Of a stretch of 64,000 nucleotides of DNA, positions 6,260 to 62,254 are shown in pieces. The first letter of the stretch is position 1. Each line of letters opens with the position of its first letter. The stretch spans positions 96,001 to 160,000 of the IMG/VR virus record IMGVR_UViG_3300050821_003907, one strand, 5' to 3'. Position numbers and translations under genes: made by a program. The notes beneath the pieces were generated by a model, which did not search any database, was not told the DNA's origin, and worked only from the letters and a program-made list of their open reading frames with translations. The stretch is from a virus.

Positions 6260-6303
6260 CAGACAACTTACTCTCTCCCTTGTGGTAGACTCGGTCCTAG
6301 CTC

Positions 6304-6912
6304 ATGAGGAGCACAAGGGAGAGAGTAAACAACATGAAGAATATTATTGTCAACACGTCCGCTAATGGCATGGACCATGTCACGCAAGGTGACTTCTGGA
6401 AGACCACAGCCACCAATGGCGCAGGTCTCGTAGCAGATATCTTCAAGAACCCAGATAAGCTAATGGCTACCTTTGCACACGTGACTGCGGTTAAGTTTGA
6501 GGATGAGCCAGCTCTCGGCGGAGGCGGCGGTGGAGCTATTCCATGGAAGGCATGGGAAGCTTCGTACGAGTACAGGTCTAGTGTAGGCGCTGAAACTAAA
6601 ACTGAGCCAGTAGCGAGTCAAGTGCAGTCTCTTGAAGATGAATGCCGCATTATAGGACTACCTACGTGGCGACTAACCGCACTCCACGAGGGTAATCCTG
6701 TCGTTAATGTATATACCCGCGAAAGTTGTGCGTCAGGGAATATGCTACACGTAGCTACAATCGTCGTTAAACCGGATGATGAGTTTAACATCACAGAAAA
6801 CGCAACGGCTGCTGGTAGTGTGCTTCGGACACACTACACCGACTTCACCAAGTTGGTAGTGGACCTTCTTGACGCCGCCCAAGCTATCAAGGACGCCGGG
6901 AATACCGAGTAG
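6304..6912 (+). CDS. hypothetical protein
   Basis: Long ORF; TAGACT -10 at 6286-6291; start may be 6334. Confidence 0.6.
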   Translation: MRSTRERVNNMKNIIVNTSANGMDHVTQGDFWKTTATNGAGLVADIFKNPDKLMATFAHVTAVKFEDEPALGGGGGGAIPWKAWEASYEYRSSVGAETKTEPVASQVQSLEDECRIIGLPTWRLTALHEGNPVVNVYTRESCASGNMLHVATIVVKPDDEFNITENATAAGSVLRTHYTDFTKLVVDLLDAAQAIKDAGNTE

Positions 6913-6933: not shown

Positions 6934-7034
6934 GCAGGCGGGAGCAGAGTTCTCCAGCGGTCAAGAGGGCCGTACCCGCGCCACGCGGGATTTGTTTCTT
7001 ACGGGAGAGTTGAACTAGCTCTGCTCCCGCCTGC
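6934..7034 (+). ncRNA. candidate structured ncRNA (about 101 nt)
   Basis: Perfect 16-bp inverted repeat (6934-6949/7019-7034) enclosing further hairpins; intergenic; no U-tail. Confidence 0.45.
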
Positions 7035-19565: not shown

Positions 19566-19994
19566 ATGAACTTCGCGTGGTACTTCGTCGTTTACCACTG
19601 GCTGGAGCTGAATGGCTTCTACAGGGACATCCTGGCCAGTGTTATTGGCCTTGGCGCTGCGCGTACCATAGCGGCACGTCCCCTGCGGGGCGTAAAGGCA
19701 TCTCAGGCACGTCAAGAGGACCTTCTGGATACCAAAACCCCTGGCGGTCTTGCTGAGGTTCACGCGGAACTCAAGGCTTTGCGTCACCTTCTGAGTGACA
19801 CCAGCGAAACCAGTCAAGGGCATGAAGACGAAGACGAGACGCCGGAAATGGACGACAAGGACAAGGGCGGGGAATCTAGCGGCAAGCGAGGCTGGCTTAC
19901 CCAGTATCGCAGGTCCCGTAAGGGACACGGTGGAGCGGGCGTTCCTGAGGCTCCCCGGGAGCCTCCGCATTTTCTGCCGCCAGGGCACCGCTAA
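19566..19994 (+). CDS. membrane protein
   Basis: Hydrophobic N-terminus; ATG 6 nt after TAGAAT. Confidence 0.55.
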   Translation: MNFAWYFVVYHWLELNGFYRDILASVIGLGAARTIAARPLRGVKASQARQEDLLDTKTPGGLAEVHAELKALRHLLSDTSETSQGHEDEDETPEMDDKDKGGESSGKRGWLTQYRRSRKGHGGAGVPEAPREPPHFLPPGHR

Positions 19995-20731
19995 TGACTT
20001 CTAAGTACGAAAAATTGTGCGTCAGATGTAATCAAGTATTTACTACTCTGGATAAAAGACAACGTTATTGCAGTAAAGAGTGTTGGTACTCACATAATAG
20101 TACTGAGGTACTAACTTATACAGAAGCTAAGATTTATTTGAGCAGTATAAAGGCTGCACGAGGTTGCGAGAATTGCGGTTACTGTAATCCGATTGCCTTG
20201 GATTTTGACCACGTTGACCGCTCAACCAAGCTAGCTCCTCTAGCACGTTTGTCTAGAACTAGCGTGAAACAATCAGTGTTGCAGGAAGAATTGGCTAAAT
20301 GTATGGTCTTGTGTGCGAACTGTCACGTCATTAAGACAAGGGATAATCAAGATTGGCGCCGTCCCAGTAAGCGCATTATTTGCGGATTCCTTATAGCAGG
20401 AACAGACTTGTGCCAGTTGAGTTCAGGACATAGTGGCGGTCATAGGCGAATTAGTTCTAGCACTAATACTAATAGTCGCAGAAAGGAGCGCCGTATTTGG
20501 GTAGACGCGCTTAAACTAGCGGCGGCCTGTACAGACTGCGGCTACGATACTGATGCTAGGGCGCTACAGTTTGACCACGTAAATCGTGGTGATAAACTAC
20601 TACCGGTGGCGTCGATGCTTCATTATGACGAAGAGCGTTTGCGCGCTGAAATCGCTAAATGTGTAATTCGCTGTGCTAACTGTCACAGGCTTAAGACAAA
20701 GGCAGGAGGTGAGTATAGGCATGGCTTCTAA
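19994..20731 (+). CDS. endonuclease with tandem HNH domains
   Basis: CENCG..ALDFDHV..LCANCH and CTDCG..ALQFDHV..RCANCH; AT-rich. Confidence 0.85.
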   Translation: MTSKYEKLCVRCNQVFTTLDKRQRYCSKECWYSHNSTEVLTYTEAKIYLSSIKAARGCENCGYCNPIALDFDHVDRSTKLAPLARLSRTSVKQSVLQEELAKCMVLCANCHVIKTRDNQDWRRPSKRIICGFLIAGTDLCQLSSGHSGGHRRISSSTNTNSRRKERRIWVDALKLAAACTDCGYDTDARALQFDHVNRGDKLLPVASMLHYDEERLRAEIAKCVIRCANCHRLKTKAGGEYRHGF

Positions 20732-21993: not shown

Positions 21994-22305
21994 ATGAGCG
22001 ATACTCTTGACGACAATCCCGGTGGCGCAACTAAGTTCACGCTGCCGTACATAGAAAAGGTGCTAGGGAAGTTCCCGTTCATCGGAGTCAGTGAGCGTGA
22101 CCAGATTCTGGCTAACCTCAAGGATGGTAAGCAAGTGCTCATGCACCTGGAGGGACGTCCTGACAAGGAATGCTTCCTGATGATTGTCAAGGTAGGTGAC
22201 GGGCTTTACGGCGCTAAGACGATGCCTCATGACATCGGGCAAGCACTACTTGCAGCCAACGAAATCCTGTTTTCCCTAGAGCAACCTGATGAGCCTGAAG
22301 AGTAA
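21994..22305 (+). CDS. hypothetical protein
   Basis: AGGAG RBS. Confidence 0.6.
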   Translation: MSDTLDDNPGGATKFTLPYIEKVLGKFPFIGVSERDQILANLKDGKQVLMHLEGRPDKECFLMIVKVGDGLYGAKTMPHDIGQALLAANEILFSLEQPDEPEE

Positions 22306-22500
22306 TTCACAGGGACGCGTATCCACTTTCCGTAGAGCCTCACATGCCAGCAACGATTCTCAACTCAGTCAGTTCATCCTGCTCAGCAAAGCAGGTGGCA
22401 CCGAACTAACGAGGAAAACCTTCACCGATACTTTCCCTACCCGAAGCAAGTGGCTGTTGTAAGCGGCGAAAGGAGGAAGACCGCCCGCGCCCCTGTGAAT
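22305..22500 (-). ncRNA. candidate structured ncRNA (about 196 nt)
   Basis: 15-bp closing stem plus nested stems; three stem mismatches become G-U wobbles on the - strand. Confidence 0.55.
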
Positions 22501-22514
22501 ATTAACCCAGCTTG

Positions 22515-22892
22515 TTAGCTGGAAGCATCGCGACGGTAAACTAGCGTCGGCTTATGGACTTCAAAAAACTTCTCGATGGGACGAGCTCCGACTACAGCGG
22601 GCACGGAACTGTAGGTAACCGAGCAAGACGTGAAGCACTCAATGACAAATCCATCACAACTAGCCCACGCCTTGCGCACGTACCAGTCAATGCCTCCGCT
22701 GCCGCGCCAGACATCGCCTACCTTGACCTCAGGCTGGACTTTATCCATCATGGCGTAAGGCAGAAACGCTTGGCGAGGCGCAGTTTCGGAATGGGAAACA
22801 GTAACCCAGGCACCGGTACTGCCAGGCATGTCAATCTTAGTGCGAAACTCCTTGATGACGACCTCGTCACCTTCGCTGAATGCGTCTGTCAT
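22515..22892 (-). CDS. hypothetical protein (SH3/KOW-like modules)
   Basis: FSEGDEVVI and VKVGDVW motifs; start overlaps upstream TGA. Confidence 0.55.
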   Translation of the reverse strand: MTDAFSEGDEVVIKEFRTKIDMPGSTGAWVTVSHSETAPRQAFLPYAMMDKVQPEVKVGDVWRGSGGIDWYVRKAWASCDGFVIECFTSCSVTYSSVPAVVGARPIEKFFEVHKPTLVYRRDASS

Positions 22893-23134
22893 GATTGCTC
22901 CCCTTCTAGCATTACTTCCCCATCCGCGCCAAATCGCTTGACCAGGACCCTCTCGCCACCGTACAACGCGAAGATGACCTGGCTTATTCCGGCGTTCTTG
23001 GCTAGCATCTGCGCGTCCCTGAGGGCCTGCGTGACGCCCTTGAGCGTGCCGGGGTATATCGTGACGCTCGGCCATGGACAGGGCTTCTCCGTGCCGCTAC
23101 GACGCATGTATCGGTCAGGCTTAGACTCCGACAC
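22889..23134 (-). CDS. hypothetical protein
   Basis: Coupled ORF. Confidence 0.5.
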   Translation of the reverse strand: MSESKPDRYMRRSGTEKPCPWPSVTIYPGTLKGVTQALRDAQMLAKNAGISQVIFALYGGERVLVKRFGADGEVMLEGEQS

Positions 23135-25355: not shown

Positions 25356-25792
25356 TACTGCACATCCCAGGGTAGCTCTTCCTGGTTCTCCAGGAGCCGC
25401 TTGATGGCAGGTTCTGCGGGCATGTAATTCGGGCCCTTGAGAATCTTGCCGTCATCGCGCAGGAGAGGCTGGCAGTCTGGCCCAATCTTAGACATGTTCG
25501 ACAGGTGGACTAGCCGCAGGACTTCATCCAGGTTAATGCCGTAAGTAATCGCAGTCCCGTAGGCTACGTACACGACGTCAGCTAGTTCCTTGGCAATAGC
25601 CACGAGTTCATCTGACTCAAGAGCCTCAACAAGCTCACGCGTTTCCTCCCACTGAAGAGATGAACGCAGGCTTATCTCCTGGTTGTCAATGTTTGCGGGC
25701 TGCGCGGGCGTGTTGCGCATGGGCAGGTCGAACATCGCGTGGAAGTTAGCGACTTCCCAGGCCACATCGGACACACCATCTGGTGTAGGCAT
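25355..25792 (-). CDS. MazG/PRA-PH-like nucleotide pyrophosphohydrolase
   Basis: EETRELVEA..KELADVVYVAYG..VHLSNMSK...DGKILKGPNY. Confidence 0.85.
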   Translation of the reverse strand: MPTPDGVSDVAWEVANFHAMFDLPMRNTPAQPANIDNQEISLRSSLQWEETRELVEALESDELVAIAKELADVVYVAYGTAITYGINLDEVLRLVHLSNMSKIGPDCQPLLRDDGKILKGPNYMPAEPAIKRLLENQEELPWDVQ

Positions 25793-26862
25793 TAGTATCC
25801 TCCTTCTATGTCAAGGGCGTGCTTAAGTGCTTTTGCAACACATGTAGCGAGCGTCGGCGGCACGGCATTACCGATTAGCCGGTAGGCTGAGCTGGCAGGG
25901 ACCGCGTTCCACGGCAGGTCCACCGGAAAGGTCTGCAACGCAGCAGCTTCCTGCGCGGTAATCCTGCGGTGAACATAACCACTGTCTCCGCGATAAGGAC
26001 GGGCACCATCTACGAGAAAGGGGTGGTACCACTCTACCCACGGAGATACACTACCACCCGAGTTCAAGCTGAGAGAATCAATGAACGGAGTCTTGTTACC
26101 TCCCATTATTGCTGGAAGGGTATAAGCAGGTGCGTCTAGGTTCAGCGGTCGTGCTCCGTTGAATAGCATTCCACTGTACGGACTACTGCGAAGCACAGGA
26201 TTGCGGGCGAATGTAATCTTTGCGTTCGACTTAATGTCGTTGCCCAGCGCTCCGTAAACAGGCATTTCCGATAGGACACTGCGAACTGTGCCGCCCCGCA
26301 TGCGCTGGTCAAACATAGCACACGTAAACGGTATGGAAATGCTGGAATTCTTGGGGAATCCTGCCAGGAACAAGCGCTCGCGGTGCTGGGGCACGCCGTA
26401 TTCTGCGGCATCAACCACTAGCGCGCACAAGTCGTAAGACTCCCGGAGGAAACTTTTCAGGCGCTGAAAAGCTGAAGCATGCCGGGAACTTGTAAGGTCC
26501 TTTACGTTCTCCATGAGGAATGCACGAGGCTTCTTTGCATACACCACTGCTGAAAATGCGAATATCATCTGGCTTCGAGGGTCGTCAGGGTCTTGATTGC
26601 CTGCCCTGCTGAATCCCTGGCACGGCGGCCCACCGATGATTACGTCGGAGTCAGGGATTTCCTCTTCCCAGTTAGCGTGCATGATGTTGCCGGTAGAAAA
26701 ATGAGAATCACGCTGGGACATGTAGTTACGTTGCATGGCAGCATCGTGAATCACCTTGGCGTGAGGGTCGGTATCGTTAGCCCACTGCACATCGAACCCG
26801 GCATTCGTAAAGCCAATGTCAAGTCCGCCTGCTCCAGAGAACAAGCTTGTAACGGTAGTCAT
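25792..26862 (-). CDS. DNA (cytosine-5) methyltransferase
   Basis: Motif I FSGAGG, IV GGPPCQGFS, VI ENV, VIII PQHRERLF, IX RRIT..EAAALQTFP, X IGNAVP. Confidence 0.95.
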   Translation of the reverse strand: MTTVTSLFSGAGGLDIGFTNAGFDVQWANDTDPHAKVIHDAAMQRNYMSQRDSHFSTGNIMHANWEEEIPDSDVIIGGPPCQGFSRAGNQDPDDPRSQMIFAFSAVVYAKKPRAFLMENVKDLTSSRHASAFQRLKSFLRESYDLCALVVDAAEYGVPQHRERLFLAGFPKNSSISIPFTCAMFDQRMRGGTVRSVLSEMPVYGALGNDIKSNAKITFARNPVLRSSPYSGMLFNGARPLNLDAPAYTLPAIMGGNKTPFIDSLSLNSGGSVSPWVEWYHPFLVDGARPYRGDSGYVHRRITAQEAAALQTFPVDLPWNAVPASSAYRLIGNAVPPTLATCVAKALKHALDIEGGY

Positions 26863-27146
26863 CAGGTGTCCACCCCCTTTTCCTTACTGCCCGCCAGGTG
26901 CGACGTATGAAGCCTGCCAAGTATCCACTCTTCACCTTGGCGCATTGCTTTCTTGCGGAATTTCTCGCACCCTATCAGCATTCCAGACTGAGACTGGACA
27001 ATCCAGCCTCGAACAGGCCCACGGCTGACGGCAGCAAGCTTCTCGTATCTTCCCCCGGACTTCCTGAGCATGAGAATCCTTGAGCCGTCAGCCTCATGTT
27101 CCCAGAACATCGAGCTCTCACCGGGGTTTAGCTTAACGCGGCGCAC
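26862..27146 (-). CDS. hypothetical protein
   Basis: Coupled ORF. Confidence 0.5.
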   Translation of the reverse strand: MRRVKLNPGESSMFWEHEADGSRILMLRKSGGRYEKLAAVSRGPVRGWIVQSQSGMLIGCEKFRKKAMRQGEEWILGRLHTSHLAGSKEKGVDT

Positions 27147-27480: not shown

Positions 27481-27668
27481 CTTTACGAGACTCCTGTCGT
27501 GCTCGCTCGATTACCTTGAGGGACAGTTCCGGGAACAGTTTGTCACCCTTGTGGAACAGTTCCATGTCAAGGTAACGTTCGAATGCTTTAAGCGCATTAC
27601 GGTAGAGGACCGGATTAGCGTCCCCTGCTGACTGGTTCTTGCTCATCCGGTCCTCCACGTATGTGCTG

Positions 27669-31454: not shown

Positions 31455-32208
31455 GATTAGCCGCCTCTCGTTTAGCTGCGATTTCTTCTTGCAACATCAG
31501 CACCGTTTCCGTAAACTTGTCTAGGTCATCTACGACAAACCACTCCGAAACGCGCATCTTATGCGGGAAAAGATTGGGTACACCTAGGAGCGCTAGGCTG
31601 CTCTGGATATAGGCTTCTTCGGCCTGAGAAGCACCCCGCATCATGAGTACGCTCTTCGCTCCCGTGAGCCGTTCAGGATAACCGTTGCGTTTAGCTACAT
31701 CTCTAGCCGATGAAGGTGTATCACGCCAACGACCGGTTGAGTAGCCTACTTTAGCTACGCCTTGTTCGGGAAATACAATCACGTATACAACGGCACCTGA
31801 AGAGTCTTCTATGTCGATAGAGGAATCCCACATAGCATTGCCGACACCTGGTTGGCCTCCAGGCTTTCGTCGCCTAGTAACATCCCGGAGGCTTCCACAA
31901 CTACGGATATTTCCGGACTTAAATTCTTTAGCGACTACTGTAAATGCCGATTTTAGGCCATTACATTCCGGGCAATTACAGACAACTTCTACACAATTAC
32001 GGGAAACTTCGCCCCGCGAAGTCATAACTACACCTTTAAAGGTGTCACTAGCAGCCTCTAGGTACCCGTCAGGCTGACGGGTACCTCGGCTAATTACTAT
32101 CCGGTCGCCCTTGGCGTTACTCACACCACGAATAACGCCTGACTGACCGCCTGTATTCCTTAGTGACCTAGGACATGTGTGGCGGGTCCGCCGCCATAAT
32201 TCAACCAA
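31447..32208 (-). CDS. putative GIY-YIG/T5orf172-like homing endonuclease
   Basis: CNCPECNG..SGNIRSCG; VYVIV..VAKVGYS..R..E..SEWF; AT-rich; start uncertain. Confidence 0.65.
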   Translation of the reverse strand: MVELWRRTRHTCPRSLRNTGGQSGVIRGVSNAKGDRIVISRGTRQPDGYLEAASDTFKGVVMTSRGEVSRNCVEVVCNCPECNGLKSAFTVVAKEFKSGNIRSCGSLRDVTRRRKPGGQPGVGNAMWDSSIDIEDSSGAVVYVIVFPEQGVAKVGYSTGRWRDTPSSARDVAKRNGYPERLTGAKSVLMMRGASQAEEAYIQSSLALLGVPNLFPHKMRVSEWFVVDDLDKFTETVLMLQEEIAAKREAANHG

Positions 32209-39134: not shown

Positions 39135-39525
39135 GTCAGTCCTCTCGTAGTCTCGACCGATGCCAACACCCTGTCAGTCCGGGTTATTCCCGTAGTTGTA
39201 CACGACGTAGTCAAGTACTTCCTTAATCGCTACGAGCGCACCGCAGTTGTAGGCTGTAGTCACTTCGTCTTCAGCAGCACGGGCAGCGGGCAGTTCATTC
39301 GCGTAGCGGTTCTTCGCTTGCTCTAGAAAATCAATAAGGTACTGGTTCATTACAGGTCCTTAACATCGGTCATGTCATCCGGGTAAATTTCCCCGAAGAC
39401 GTACGGAGGTAGCTGGTTAGCCAGGTCTTCTAGCGTGCCGAGCCCAATCTGGCTATTGTCCGGGTCTGCGGTAAACCCTGAGCACATCACGCTGATGAAC
39501 TTAGCCGTGACATTCTTCATGTCAC

Positions 39526-39555
39526 AATCCTCCCCTAAAAACGCTATCAGTCAAC
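39526..39555 (-). repeat. intergenic direct repeat copy A (RBS-containing)
   Basis: AATCCTCCCCTAAAAACGCTATCAGTCAAC; near-identical to 39949-39977. Confidence 0.75.
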
Positions 39556-39947
39556 TAGTTGTCATTGAACTTGTCTAGCAGGTCCCTAGGGAAGTACACG
39601 AACAGGTCGTCCAGGTAGTTCTCGTGGAACCGCCAGCCTACTGGGTAAACTGCTTCCACACCTAGCAGGTCTCGCAAGACCTGAACTCCTAGTTCACGGT
39701 TTTCTGTGCGTTCTCCCAGGAACACAACCTGAACCTTGCCATCTTCTGTGAAGTGCCCGTACGGGTTGTACTCACAACTCCACTCGTTCCAGCGCTCACA
39801 AGAGAACCGCGTGACGATTCCTTGCTTCCACAGGGCCTTGAGCAGCTTTACCATGCCGCTGTCCACGCGAATGCGCTTGTATGGCGACCACGACGGAGCT
39901 GCGACTCTTGACTGCTCGTGTTGCCAGCCATTAATTGCTAGTGACAT
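39555..39947 (-). CDS. hypothetical protein
   Basis: GGGGAGG RBS; VKLLKALW..GI.TRFSCE. Confidence 0.6.
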   Translation of the reverse strand: MSLAINGWQHEQSRVAAPSWSPYKRIRVDSGMVKLLKALWKQGIVTRFSCERWNEWSCEYNPYGHFTEDGKVQVVFLGERTENRELGVQVLRDLLGVEAVYPVGWRFHENYLDDLFVYFPRDLLDKFNDN

Positions 39948-44370: not shown

Positions 44371-44592
44371 TCATTTCTGCTCCTGTATGTACTCGATGTG
44401 GGAACGCCTTAGGTAACGAGTGCAGCCATCTCGGATGACGAACTCATTACCGTAGTCAGCACGCTCAAGGATACCCTCATAAACAAGGGCAACACGAACG
44501 CGCTTACCTTCGTAGTGCTTCAGTTCTTCGAGTGGGATGGCAGACAGGTCGTTGCACGGGCCACCCCGCTCTCGAATCCAGAATTGAGTCAC
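44371..44592 (-). CDS. hypothetical protein
   Basis: AGGAGG RBS before GTG. Confidence 0.5.
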   Translation of the reverse strand: MTQFWIRERGGPCNDLSAIPLEELKHYEGKRVRVALVYEGILERADYGNEFVIRDGCTRYLRRSHIEYIQEQK

Positions 44593-44696
44593 TACACCTC
44601 CTTGCTCTTGTTCTTACTGCACTCGGCGGATAGCCAGTGAGCTTCAAGGAACATAGTGCTAATTCCACAGAAGCAGCAAATTCTCGTGGACAGCAT

Positions 44697-48781: not shown

Positions 48782-49027
48782 TTATTCCCGCACCCAGTCT
48801 CGCGTGAACGCATCCAGCGGCTTCGGGACCGCGCAAGGGTCACTGAGTACCTGGTGGTACCAGGCGGCGAGAGCTTTGAGCAGGAAATTACTCTTGGCGT
48901 TGTAATCCAGCTTGCGGTACCAGTCTTCGTCTTTAACTATGCTGTCGATACGGTTTTTGAAGTAATAGATAGAGTCTTCTGAAAATGATTCCAGTTGCTC
49001 TTCTATGAAGGTGCTCATCGCGCCCAT
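48782..49027 (-). CDS. hypothetical protein
   Basis: Weakly similar to 49015-49272. Confidence 0.5.
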   Translation of the reverse strand: MGAMSTFIEEQLESFSEDSIYYFKNRIDSIVKDEDWYRKLDYNAKSNFLLKALAAWYHQVLSDPCAVPKPLDAFTRDWVRE

Positions 49028-49272
49028 TCCTCTACGAAATGCCGGATGTGAATCCGTGGTACCTGACCTTCAGTCTTTTGCCTGTCCATGTCTTCGAACA
49101 TGGCTTGCAGGGCCTTGTCCACTGCACGAAACTTAGCTTCGGGGTCCATGAGCACAAACCATTCGTGCTTCTCAAGCACGGATTCGACTTTCGTTAGCAA
49201 GTGCCGGTTGAACGCCGTCTTCTCCATTACCCCATTCGATTCCGAAAGAAAGATTGTCCTTGTCAAACACAA
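49015..49272 (-). CDS. hypothetical protein
   Basis: Weakly similar to 48782-49027. Confidence 0.5.
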   Translation of the reverse strand: MCLTRTIFLSESNGVMEKTAFNRHLLTKVESVLEKHEWFVLMDPEAKFRAVDKALQAMFEDMDRQKTEGQVPRIHIRHFVEEWAR

Positions 49273-49396
49273 TTTCTGTGTCCTTAAGAACAGCGATGCC
49301 TGTCATCATTGCCTGACCGACTGCGATTACCGCAACGTCCCGGTTGAACTTCCGGGTTAGCAGGGTTACCGCGTAATCAAAGTTTCCGACGTGCAT

Positions 49397-49624
49397 TTAC
49401 CACTCCGGGTCTGGTGCGTTTTCACTCCACTGCTTACCGTCTGTGCCTTTCTTCAGCTCCTTGAGCAGCAGGCTTCCTAGTGCCGAGGCAACCTCGGTCT
49501 CCACGTCGTAAATCATGGAGCCGTCGTAAGCACGGTAAGCGAATTCCGTGCCGTTAATAGTCAGGTTGTAGCCGCTATAGCCGTCGCCAGAAATACCAAG
49601 GATGATACTGAACGTGCGTGCCAC
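49397..49624 (-). CDS. hypothetical protein
   Basis: Coupled ORF. Confidence 0.5.
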   Translation of the reverse strand: MARTFSIILGISGDGYSGYNLTINGTEFAYRAYDGSMIYDVETEVASALGSLLLKELKKGTDGKQWSENAPDPEW

Positions 49625-49876
49625 TATTCTCCCTCGTACTCACTATTAGGGGAAACGTTTACCTGGAAAACGCTCTCGTCAAATTCACGACCGAAACTAT
49701 TCGGGTTCGAAGGAAAGCCAACCAGCACTCTCCCTGGCAAGTCGGGTGTAGCCATGCGAGTCGCTATCTTAAAAAGCCAAGCGAGTCCTTGAAGGTCCAG
49801 CAGAATATCGCCTGGTTGGATAACAGCGCCAGTCACGTCACGAGCTATAAGGCGAGGTGTGTACGCCATTACTCTC

Positions 49877-50098
49877 CTAACCTAGTTCTACAGTAACCTT
49901 AAGCACCCGGTATTCCTGGTCAGTAATGAACTCATTCCACTGCCAGGTTTTCTTGAATGCCTCGTCGCGCTTGTCTTCGGGGAAACGCGCATAGCCAATA
50001 GGTCGCCATGCTTGCCCGTACTCTTTAGCGCGACACTGAATGACGTAGAAGACTTCCCCCGGCTCTCCGGAGATGCAGTACTCAGGAGTTGCCATCAT
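49877..50098 (-). CDS. hypothetical protein
   Basis: GAGGGG RBS. Confidence 0.5.
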   Translation of the reverse strand: MMATPEYCISGEPGEVFYVIQCRAKEYGQAWRPIGYARFPEDKRDEAFKKTWQWNEFITDQEYRVLKVTVELG

Positions 50099-50585
50099 TT
50101 CCCCTCTAGCGAACTACCTCTAGGCAGCAATCAGGAACGCATGTCTCCTGGTCGTGGAATATAATCCACCAGCTTGCGCCTGAACCGCTTGTCCTAATGA
50201 GCTCATAAACGTGGTCAGTAGTTGTTTCCCAGTAGCGAGCGTACATCTCACGAAACCTGACCTTCGTCCGCAGGTAATCCTCCATTGTCCCTCTTAGCGT
50301 AGTCGCGCTCTATACTGCCAATGCAATCGTAAAAGCGCTTGTACAAAGGCTCAAGTCCCGGATTAAGGCGTGACCACCTGTTTAGCTGGTTGATGCAGTC
50401 ACGCAGTTCATGGAGGGGAGTCAGCTCGCCTTTGAGCTGTTCCCCGTGACCATATGACATCTACTTGCTTTTCTTCTTGTTGTAGCGCTTGTAAGCGAAC
50501 TTAAGGGCAAGGAACGCCAAGCGCAGTGCCAGGATTCGCATTTCCTTCAGGTCCTCATCTTCGTCTTTACGAGCCAGGAACATGA

Positions 50586-50864
50586 TTAGTGGTCGCTTCC
50601 CTGAAGCTTGTTCTCGTTGGCCAGTGACGGGTGCTGGTGCGGCTCGAAGCCGAACGCGCGACCGTGATGCCCGCAAAGGCTCAGTGAGCCACCCTCCGGG
50701 AGCTTGTCCGTGGGAGGCAGGCAGACCTCAATGAGAGCCACAACAGCAGGACCGCAGCCGTCGCAAGTGTGGTCGGTAACCGTGTCAAGCATGGTGAAAA
50801 CCGGTTGGGTGGTGACTTCCGGCTTCTCGGCGGGCAGGTCAAGAGTGGTAACTTCAGTCATCAT
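50586..50864 (-). CDS. small zinc-binding protein
   Basis: CDGCG...L.LCGHHG; AGGAGA RBS. Confidence 0.6.
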   Translation of the reverse strand: MMTEVTTLDLPAEKPEVTTQPVFTMLDTVTDHTCDGCGPAVVALIEVCLPPTDKLPEGGSLSLCGHHGRAFGFEPHQHPSLANENKLQGSDH

Positions 50865-51097
50865 GGTCTCCTGTCTGGGTACTGCTGTTGTCGCTAGTTT
50901 ACCGCGTGTTACGTGTACAGAACGCTCTTAAGGCCGTTTTCCAGCTTGAGCAGGGTGTCCTTAGTGCCATCGGCCACCAGGGCGGCAATCAGAGGAACTA
51001 CTGTGCGATTTCGGTGCAGGGCAGTCTTGAGCCGGAAAGCCTCCTCTTCAGTGAGGACGATTGTGATTGTCTTCTGTGTCTTTGCGCCGATTTCCAT

Positions 51098-51364
51098 TTA
51101 TCCTCCTAGTTGGTGAGCGCCCTCTTCAATGAGAGCCATTACCATTGTCGAAGCATTCGTTTCCCGGTACTCACCTAGTAGCCATCGCTTGAGCATTCCC
51201 TCGCTCGTACGCTCAGGGTCATACGGTGCCAGGTCGTAAAAGCGAATAATGAAAATAGCCAGCACTTCTGCTGTGCTCTCAGCCTCTGGCCCCTTGCATG
51301 AATTCACCTGCTCTTGCGCAACCTGAAAAGAATCTACCAGATAACGGTTACGGTGGAACGTCAC
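51098..51364 (-). CDS. hypothetical protein
   Basis: Coupled ORF. Confidence 0.5.
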   Translation of the reverse strand: MTFHRNRYLVDSFQVAQEQVNSCKGPEAESTAEVLAIFIIRFYDLAPYDPERTSEGMLKRWLLGEYRETNASTMVMALIEEGAHQLGG

Positions 51365-56517: not shown

Positions 56518-56670
56518 GTTAATATCCTTCTGGTCCGGGGAAAACGAAACTCGCGATTATTATGAGGATGGCCGGGATGAACAGCGGTGCGAACCACCAG
56601 CTGTGCAGGCCAATCTCCACGTACAAGCCCGCGCCCATGCAGGCAAGCGCGAACAGCCCGAACATGGCCA

Positions 56671-57252
56671 CTACAGGCCCCTCGCACGGAGCTTAGCGGC
56701 CATGTCCAGTGCTCCCGCCGCGTGCATGCGCATCTGCGCGCTCTCGCGGGCGAGAACAGCCTGCTTGCTAACGACAGGTGCCGGACGGGCACTGACCTTA
56801 GCCGCGCTCTTGCTCTTGCCGGTAGCCGACTCAACGCCCTTAGCGAGTGCCCAGATGCCGAATGCCATCCCGATGACCAGCACGAACCAGGCAGCGCCAT
56901 GCGACTCAGGGTAGGGACGCGCGATAGCGAAGGTCACCAGCGACAGGATGATAGCGCCGACGCCACCAAAGATGCCAGTCAGGCCAGGGTGAGTCTGAGC
57001 AGGGCTTCCGCCCCACTTCTCTTCCTCCTTGTTGATGTACCAGGCAGCGCCCATGACGCCAGCGGCGGCAACAGCCTCACTAGCGGCCATGCCAGCGCCA
57101 CCAGCGCGCATGATGGGACCAGCGAGGTTGGGACCGCCCCCGCCTAGGCCCTTGGTGATGACGGCGTTCATGGCGTTGCCAGCGGTGCCCATGGCACGAG
57201 TCTGGCCCCGCATGACGTAACGCGCTGCGAACAGCGGCCAGATGCGAATCAT
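56671..57252 (-). CDS. membrane protein
   Basis: Gly/Ala-rich amphipathic N-terminus plus TMs. Confidence 0.6.
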   Translation of the reverse strand: MIRIWPLFAARYVMRGQTRAMGTAGNAMNAVITKGLGGGGPNLAGPIMRAGGAGMAASEAVAAAGVMGAAWYINKEEEKWGGSPAQTHPGLTGIFGGVGAIILSLVTFAIARPYPESHGAAWFVLVIGMAFGIWALAKGVESATGKSKSAAKVSARPAPVVSKQAVLARESAQMRMHAAGALDMAAKLRARGL

Positions 57253-61634: not shown

Positions 61635-61795
61635 TGGCACTTCCTCATTACCATGCTGTAACGGGCAAGGCAGAAGAACTCAGGCACGAGGAAAGGCGTG
61701 CCCCAGATATGGGGATGGAAAGCAAAGTCCACGGCAAAGATTCCGGCAATGCAGAGCATCGCGCCTGCAAACCAGAACATGGCTTCCCTGCTCAT
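61631..61795 (-). CDS. 54-aa membrane protein
   Basis: GAGGGGG RBS; MSREAMFWFAGAMLCIAGIFAVDFAFHPHIWGTPFLVPEFFCLARY... Confidence 0.55.
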   Translation of the reverse strand: MSREAMFWFAGAMLCIAGIFAVDFAFHPHIWGTPFLVPEFFCLARYSMVMRKCQ

Positions 61796-62254
61796 CAACG
61801 TCCCCCTCTTAAAGTCTATTGGCCGCAGGCCGGGGCGGCGTTGTCGCCGCTCCCAGCCTGCAATTTGCTTATTCAGTTGTTTCTGAGTGCAGAGTGTTTG
61901 CTAACCGCATCAAGTACGGAGTCAACTCTAACTGCATCTATTTGTTTTATGCGAGACTACTAGTCCCTGTTCCTGATGGTCTTAACCGGGTAGGTCCCCC
62001 GGCCATCGTTGCGGAAGCGTCGGACGGCGGTCACGACGATGGGAGTGTCCTCGCCAGCGGCAGCCTGAGCAGCGGCGGCAGCGCTGAAAGCGCCGTCAGC
62101 CTCAACCTCAACGGTGTCGGTGGAAAGAACCTTGAAATCAACCTCGTAGCGGTTGGCAGCCATTTTACGGCCTTTCTGTTTGGGTACATGAACGTTCACG
62201 TCTGCTTATTCCGTTATTATTCACTTGTACTACTCCCGCTTCCCAGCGGGAAGC

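Follow-up and report, generated by a model that had tools for sequence, protein, structure and literature searches.

Where the two gene arms of a large soil phage converge, the gap between the facing stop codons is taken up by 196 nt whose ends pair with each other. A preliminary description, made from the letters of the sequence, had proposed that this is a structured RNA read from the minus strand. We asked whether the proposal holds and, if so, what such an RNA might do at this place. The window that we analysed, a stretch of 64,000 nt, covers bases 96001-160000 of a 181,160-bp IMG/VR soil virus record (IMGVR_UViG_3300050821_003907), which derives from an uncultured phage and has an estimated completeness of 98%. 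Unless stated otherwise, positions refer to the window.

Genomic setting of the element

In the gene listing of the window, genes lie on the plus strand up to 22305 and on the minus strand from 22515 onward, and the cumulative GC skew turns at the same junction. Because the switch of coding strand and the turn of the skew coincide here, we take the element to lie at the main point where the two gene arms converge. It fills the space between the plus-strand stop codon (22303-22305) and the minus-strand stop codon (22515-22517), as had been proposed. Base 22305 is both the last base of the former and part of the 3' half of the closing stem; 15 nt separate the element from the latter.

Both neighbouring genes are orphans. 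Neither product belongs to a Pfam or PHROG family, and the product of the upstream, minus-strand gene has no Atlas match either; its AF2 model has a pLDDT of 38.7, too low for a fold search. The 186-aa ORF that can be drawn for this gene (22515-23075) extends too far, the start of the conserved protein being the Met of 22892. The only homologue is 124 aa long, aligns from residue 62 of the 186-aa ORF onward and lacks the 61 Arg-rich residues at the N-terminus.

Two further features of the genome were recorded in passing. A stretch of about 2.5 kb (48844-51360) contains no ORF of at least 100 aa on either strand. Outside the window, at G000:C1:5384-6499, the phage encodes an RtcB RNA ligase, for which the Pfam match falls in two stretches (model positions 1-86 and 141-426) of one 402-aa open frame.

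Architecture of the element

The coordinates of the element, its parts and its neighbours are collected in Table 1.

Table 1. Features at the convergent junction (window positions).
Feature	Position	Strand	Remarks
Convergent gene	21994-22305	+	103 aa, orphan
Whole structured element, 196 nt	22305-22500	-	Assessed by MFE and z; conserved in the related phage (L002:3314-3506)
Closing stem, 3' half	22305-22319	-	Complementary to 22486-22500
Long imperfect arm, about 30 bp, several G-U	22349-22426	-	Folds in both phages
Apical hairpin capping the long arm	22378-22395	-	Perfect CCTGCT/AGCAGG
Side hairpin P2, 5-bp stem stacked on closing stem	22465-22485	-	Folds; identical in both phages
Closing stem, 5' half, 15 bp	22486-22500	-	Pairs with 22305-22319; pair probabilities 0.87-1.0
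Small hairpin directly upstream, CCAGCU-AACA-AGCUGG	22506-22523	-	Identical in the related phage
Upstream gene, orphan	22515-22892	-	About 125 aa; gene calls on identical contigs give 125 aa

The stems of the preliminary description are real, and so is its observation on their mismatches. The closing stem is present; its single mismatch reads A.C on plus and G.U on minus. Inside it we found CCACTT/AAGTGG (22323-28/22448-53), GTAGAG/CCCTAC (22332-37/22435-40, one mismatch), GTCAGTTC/GAACTAAC (22368-75/22403-10, one mismatch), the perfect apical hairpin and the GCGG/CCGC side hairpin (22463-66/22481-84). The three mismatches read A.C or C.A on the plus strand, and all are G-U on the minus strand.

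The arrangement of the nested helices needs more care. In the minimum free energy (MFE) structure the element is a four-way junction, and the helices CCACUU/AAGUGG and GUAGGG/CUCUAC instead build a rod-like fold that, when enforced, has only small asymmetric internal loops. In the window this alternative comes to within 0.3 kcal/mol of the MFE; in the related phage introduced below it is 6 kcal/mol worse. The closing stem, P2, the long arm and the apical hairpin are common to both folds. The closing stem (15 bp) is coaxial on P2 (5 bp), and its 5' strand is thereby paired over 20 consecutive nucleotides. The loop of P2, UCUUCCUCCUU (11 nt, 22470-22480), runs into UUCG and contains CCUCCUUUC; read as UCUUCCUCCUUUCG with CCUCCUUUC inside, it is the only long hairpin loop of the element. 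Inspection by eye revealed no conserved pseudoknot partner of this loop inside the element. BLAST, and a covariance model built from the two available sequences, found the element as a single copy in the 181-kb genome.

Coding potential, promoters and terminators

No conserved ORF crosses the element. A 22-aa plus-strand ORF (22450-22518) that is kept in both phages was rejected, as each of its four nucleotide differences alters an amino acid and it is not preceded by a ribosome-binding site. We also rejected a -10-like TAATAT (22499-22504) as the element's own promoter, for the start would fall inside the closing stem and the motif reads TAAGAT in the related phage.

The loop of the small hairpin directly upstream contains the TAA with which the upstream gene stops. 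This hairpin occurs once in the genome and is unchanged in the related phage, against only about 65-72% identity in the adjacent coding sequence. The closing stem begins seven nucleotides after it, and the sequence upstream of it is the least conserved nearby. Given this low conservation and the mere 15 nt to the upstream stop, no conserved promoter of the element's own is visible. As a promoter would find no space here and none is conserved, the simplest view is that the element is co-transcribed with the upstream gene.

A promoter and terminator scan flagged only the small hairpin as terminator-like in the window. Its U-rich tail is not conserved (UUAAUAUU in one phage, CUAAGAUU in the other), and we therefore do not regard it as a conserved terminator. 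The element itself was rejected as an intrinsic (Rho-independent) terminator: no U-tract follows the closing stem on either strand, in keeping with what the preliminary description had remarked.

Folding energy and chance expectation

Folded as RNA, the minus strand of the element reaches an MFE of -81.4 kcal/mol (z -4.04), and 0 of 200 dinucleotide shuffles were as good. The plus strand is unremarkable (-54.3 kcal/mol, z -1.10). The identical domain fold is obtained inside 266 nt of context.

We weighed these values against the possibility that the element has no specific function and is a leftover spacer, folded and conserved by chance. Using a scan of the window as the genome background, we obtained for random 196-nt windows a mean z of -0.45 (sd 1.32), with 2 of 90 at -3.9 or lower, and several coding windows reached -4.5 to -6; the fold of the element stands in the top 1-3% of genome windows and not beyond. 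The terminal repeat is no rarity either, since by calculation 64 kb, the length of the window, should contain about one 15-bp inverted repeat with one mismatch within 400 nt. The preliminary description had read the three G-U mismatches as a sign of selection. Alone they do not show it, and folds of comparable score are found elsewhere in the genome.

Chance accounts less easily for the position and the strandedness of the fold. The closing stem exactly bounds the intergenic position, and the asymmetry between strands recurs in both phages. Three of about 36 intergenic pieces of the window, the element included, are strongly structured, and the element is the only one of them in which the two strands differ. 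The other apparent convergent junctions in the window are unstructured, which indicates that the element is not a general device of the phage.

Structured places were noted in other parts of the window as well. Four minus-strand 200-nt windows (31906-32205, 39506-39705, 44406-44605 and 61706-61905) have z values of -4.6 to -6.1, at least as strong as that of the element, and a further minus-strand stretch (56606-56805; 67% GC, -114.7 kcal/mol, z -4.4) lies inside overlapping ORFs. Positions 27481-27668 fold exceptionally well on either strand (z -5 to -8). An 18-bp hairpin within them (27602-27658) seems to occlude an ATG together with a GGAGG ribosome-binding site. What follows this ATG reads like a protein start, and the gene start in this region is probably mis-set by the simple ORF list. 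Two perfect inverted repeats lie between plus-strand genes, one of 17 bp with a 27-nt spacer (6268-6328) and one of 16 bp with a 69-nt spacer (6934-7034; z about -3.6 on both strands). Both are likely terminators or operators.

Conservation in a related phage

The only distinct relative that we reached is a 163,509-bp soil phage contig (IMGVR_UViG_3300021404_000005), which carries the element at the same junction; six further contigs have a copy identical to that of the window. A search of 50,697 phage records with the element and its neighbours (blastn and tblastn) gave no match. Exact-pattern and protein-based scans of IMG/VR and a scan of metagenome contigs yielded nothing beyond the 163.5-kb contig, and two viral contigs matching a looser two-part pattern were rejected by the covariance model. 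More distant relatives were found of the neighbouring 126-aa gene, namely P0003 (73% identical, on a 76.8-kb Logan contig) and P0004.

Two genes of the window are absent from the otherwise collinear relative: an HNH endonuclease gene (19994-20731), with the alignment broken exactly at 20009-20721, and a DNA methyltransferase gene (25792-26862), with the break exactly at 25794-26868. The pattern suggests that both are mobile or exchangeable cassettes.

The element is 90.3% identical between the two phages with indels counted as mismatches, compared with 81.9% for the whole aligned region (12 kb around the site), 80-87% for other intergenic stretches and 72-88% for flanking genes. An excess of only 3-10 points over other intergenic regions could also be met in a spacer of no function. 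The structure is the same in the relative, with an MFE of -84.8 kcal/mol and a z of -4.74 on the minus strand, and the terminal repeat there is perfect over 14 bp.

In the RNAalifold consensus structure of the two sequences (67 pairs), three pairs change on one side with pairing kept (G-U to A-U, G-U to G-C and C-G to U-G); in the closing stem the relative has A-U in place of the G-U at 22490/22315. At the seventh and closing pair of the apical stem both sides change, from U-G to G-C. The C-G to U-G change belongs to this stem as well. The stem has 7 bp in both phages, maintained despite four nearby changes, and its loop varies in sequence and length. All four indels lie in loops, and they and the remaining substitutions fall at unpaired positions. 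Confinement of this kind is not what we would expect of a spacer folded by chance.

We redistributed the 11 substitutions and 4 indels that distinguish the two elements at random over the sequence of the window. The simulated minus strands had a mean MFE of -69.2 +/- 5.7 kcal/mol, and the stability of the real relative was equalled in 0.75% of trials (p = 0.0075), against 18% (p = 0.18) on the plus strand. In the reverse direction the result was not significant on the minus strand (16%, p = 0.16), as a structure without function would have it; the plus strand gave 73%.

The collection of homologues for a covariation test, which the preliminary description had proposed, thus yielded one distinct relative in which the structure is kept, two sequences being too few for covariation statistics. 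Judged from this pair, a conserved and strand-specific RNA structure has moderate support, short of proof, and to interpret the element as an RNA is reasonable. That it is a spacer serving no purpose we consider unlikely.

A proposed 3' domain of the leftward operon

The element is probably a structured RNA that ends the leftward transcript. As to its role there, our tentative preference is for a cis-acting domain at the 3' end of the leftward operon RNA that serves processing, stability or insulation, a reading that we regard as possible and rather less than probable. The element would be co-transcribed with the 125-aa gene that ends 15 nt upstream. Its 15-bp helix would join both ends of the domain and stack on the 5-bp P2, giving a near-continuous duplex of about 20 bp that carries the long arm. 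So closed, the domain might fix and protect the 3' end of the operon RNA, either by blocking 3' exonucleases or as a processing site for a double-strand-specific (RNase III-type) enzyme. It may also keep the leftward arm apart from the rightward genes that converge on it. A cut in the closing helix would free an RNA of roughly 190 nt whose pyrimidine-rich loop is exposed. What the analysis establishes is a conserved, strand-specific fold in a non-coding, single-copy element at this position; co-transcription, processing and an effect on stability or termination are inferences.

Several results already given lead to this reading: the minus-strand z values in the two phages (-4.04 and -4.74, against -1.10 on the plus strand); the higher identity, the unpaired indels, the changes that keep pairs and the simulation (0.75% against 18%); and the lack of an ORF across the element and of a promoter of its own, its position at the junction, and the RNA-library contigs described below that enter it from both flanks. 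The predicted duplex downstream of the gene, 15 + 5 bp, is also of about the 20 bp that an RNase III-type site calls for. Counting against the reading are the small number of distinct sequences (two), the 16% of the reverse simulation, the similar z values in coding parts, the lack of a recognisable terminator after the element and the unstructured state of the other convergent junctions. So does the absence of an RNase III gene from the phage, and the cutting enzyme would be a host RNase III-type one.

The P2 loop and the sequencing libraries

The main rival to a 3'-terminal domain is a trans-acting small RNA. In such a scheme the released domain would pair its loop with the Shine-Dalgarno regions of host or phage mRNAs and alter their translation. 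The loop invites the idea. It is the only long single-stranded hairpin loop of the element and is identical in both phages, the other unpaired parts being variable, and it contains CCUCCUUUC, which resembles the anti-Shine-Dalgarno tail of Gram-positive-type 16S rRNA. The phage genome offers no extended target complementarity, however, and the exact complement of P2 occurs nowhere else in it. Conservation of an 11-nt loop across two close sequences is, moreover, weak evidence.

We turned to sequencing libraries, all as assembled contigs: two soil metatranscriptome runs (X2 and X8) and one DNA run (X3). Stretches lacking cover in these runs were left out of the interpretation. The element sequence is present in the RNA libraries, in contigs that carry no strand. 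In X2, contigs from each of the two flanking genes extend into the element. Its depth there resembles that of the flanks, and it is not enriched over them, as a separate small RNA might be. X8 gave only element contigs, of both variants and with nothing from the flanks, as a released RNA would. However, the ends of these contigs (22315/6-22486) recur in the DNA run X3, together with excess depth, so that X8 may reflect assembly and a mixture of strains. Since the X8 ends match the DNA ends, which are those of an assembly bubble between two variants, we do not take X8 as evidence of a discrete RNA. In X3 the window-type element has about twice the depth of the left flank, an excess that fits additional strains sharing the element and lends weak support to constraint. 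A trans-acting RNA would, besides, lack any visible promoter or terminator of its own. With roughly as much doubt as we hold toward a spacer of no function, we rate a trans-acting role as the lesser prospect beside the 3'-terminal domain.

A possible function at the level of DNA

The same sequence might act as DNA, as an inverted repeat bound by a protein, a replication or terminus site, or a single-strand initiation signal that folds in one strand. The 14-bp perfect repeat of the relative and the place of the junction at the skew turn would suit such a site, as would a small HTH_7 (resolvase-type HTH) protein encoded 0.5 kb away. Annotation of the neighbouring genes, on the other hand, found no integrase or replication initiator next to the element. 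With DNA parameters the minus strand is still favoured (z -2.0 against -1.2 for the plus strand), but the signal is much weaker than with RNA parameters. The strands differ through G-U pairs, which turn into C.A mismatches on the opposite strand and have no bearing on duplex DNA, and conservation extends to the internal stems as well as the ends. We hold a DNA-level role to be improbable.

A conjectural decoy of the 16S rRNA tail

More improbable still is that the RNA mimics the 3' tail of 16S rRNA in trans, serving as a decoy for host nucleases that attack the ribosome or as a Shine-Dalgarno sponge. The P2 loop contains both UUCCU and UCCUU. These are pentads cut by the anti-Shine-Dalgarno- and rRNA-targeting toxins MazF-mt6 and MazF-mt3 (PMC5408214). 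A decoy would then go together with the RtcB ligase gene among the translation-rescue genes of the phage.

Known RNA families, CRISPR repeats and mobile elements

This conserved, minus-strand-folding element belongs to no known family. No Rfam 15 family matched the window at the gathering threshold, and at E <= 10 there was nothing meaningful in 22200-22620. In line with the preliminary description, we found no tRNA or tmRNA (ARAGORN) and no match to SRP, RNase P or riboswitch models (Rfam 15). Ribozymes, Y RNA and phi29 pRNA were rejected as well for lack of an Rfam 15 covariance model match, and the genome has no Ro/TROVE gene as a Y RNA partner. A retron or other reverse transcriptase-associated RNA was likewise rejected: there is no RVT_1 match above the cut-off in the genome, and the neighbours are orphans.

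A search of bacterial and archaeal genomes with the two-arm terminal-repeat pattern found a single match, a CRISPR array in a Phycisphaeraceae MAG. We rejected the idea that the element mimics a CRISPR repeat. It shares 15 nt with the type I-C-like repeat, 14 of them forced by the search pattern, and has neither a local hairpin nor an ATTGAAAC-type handle. Matches of more than 15 nt between the array's spacers and the phage numbered 0 of 38. The array itself, on contig CAZXGL010000036.1 and of 40 repeats, contains one aberrant unit (noted at L013 7300-7335), in which half a repeat is inverted to give a perfect palindrome with 12-bp arms and a 100-nt 'spacer'.

The dimensions of the element (15-bp terminal inverted repeats, about 200 bp, non-coding) also recall a MITE or its relic, as might its DNA depth in X3 (10.3 + 4.5, against 5.4 in the left flank). 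It is nevertheless a single copy in the 181-kb genome and occupies the same site in the relative, with no target-site duplication at its ends in either phage, and its terminal-repeat pattern finds no copy in 596 Gb of bacterial genomes, the chance CRISPR array aside. The plus strand, too, folds poorly, unlike that of a symmetric MITE. An origin of this kind seems to us scarcely plausible. Least credible is the loose likeness to 6S RNA, as an RNA that binds RNA polymerase, drawn in the preliminary description: the length (about 190 nt), the stem that closes the ends and the near-isoenergetic rod-like fold speak for it, but there is no 6S hit at E <= 10 and no large central bubble in either the MFE or the rod-like fold, and the element, with no room for its own promoter, is not an independent gene.

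Significance

If real, the element is an uncatalogued structured RNA that marks the meeting point of two transcription arms in a 181-kb soil phage. It would be a concrete case of how large phages may end and insulate long operons without canonical terminators or, alternatively, a phage RNA that presents an anti-Shine-Dalgarno sequence. Because it is known from one narrow lineage, in two sequence variants, its general importance is small at present.

Comparison with known systems

Set beside 6S RNA (RF00013 and related), the element shares the length and the closing stem of 5' and 3' ends, but differs in having no model match, no central bubble resembling an open promoter and no promoter of its own. 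The packaging RNA of phi29 (RF00044) similarly has a long helix of its 5' and 3' ends that leads into a multi-way junction with exposed loops. It sits, however, behind an early promoter at the genome end, whereas our element lies at an operon end, lacks a model match and belongs to a 181-kb genome, far larger than those of phi29-like phages. With RNAIII and RsaE of S. aureus and the actinobacterial 6C RNA (RF01066) the element has in common, by analogy, a C/U-rich apical loop that could pair with GGAGG-type sites; there is no homology, and it has one such loop in place of repeated C-rich loops.

Small RNAs from bacterial 3' UTRs, of the CpxQ, SroC and DapZ type, offer another analogy, being located at the operon 3' end without a promoter of their own and released by processing with an exposed seed, as the element may be. 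They end in a Rho-independent terminator with a U-tail and measure about 60-100 nt; the element, at twice that length, lacks a U-tail and is closed by its own ends.

The sib retroregulator of lambda and the RNase III sites of phages, such as R1.1 of T7, act on the stability of the upstream message. The sib structure consists of one hairpin, about 50-60 bp long and overlapping a terminator, whereas the element, at 196 nt, is branched and has a side hairpin. It bears no sequence similarity to sib or R1.1, and its cleavage by RNase III is putative. What it has in common with them is a structured RNA placed immediately 3' of the last gene of an operon, built by the pairing of distant segments and lacking a U-tract, and by analogy it too may act on the stability of the message upstream.
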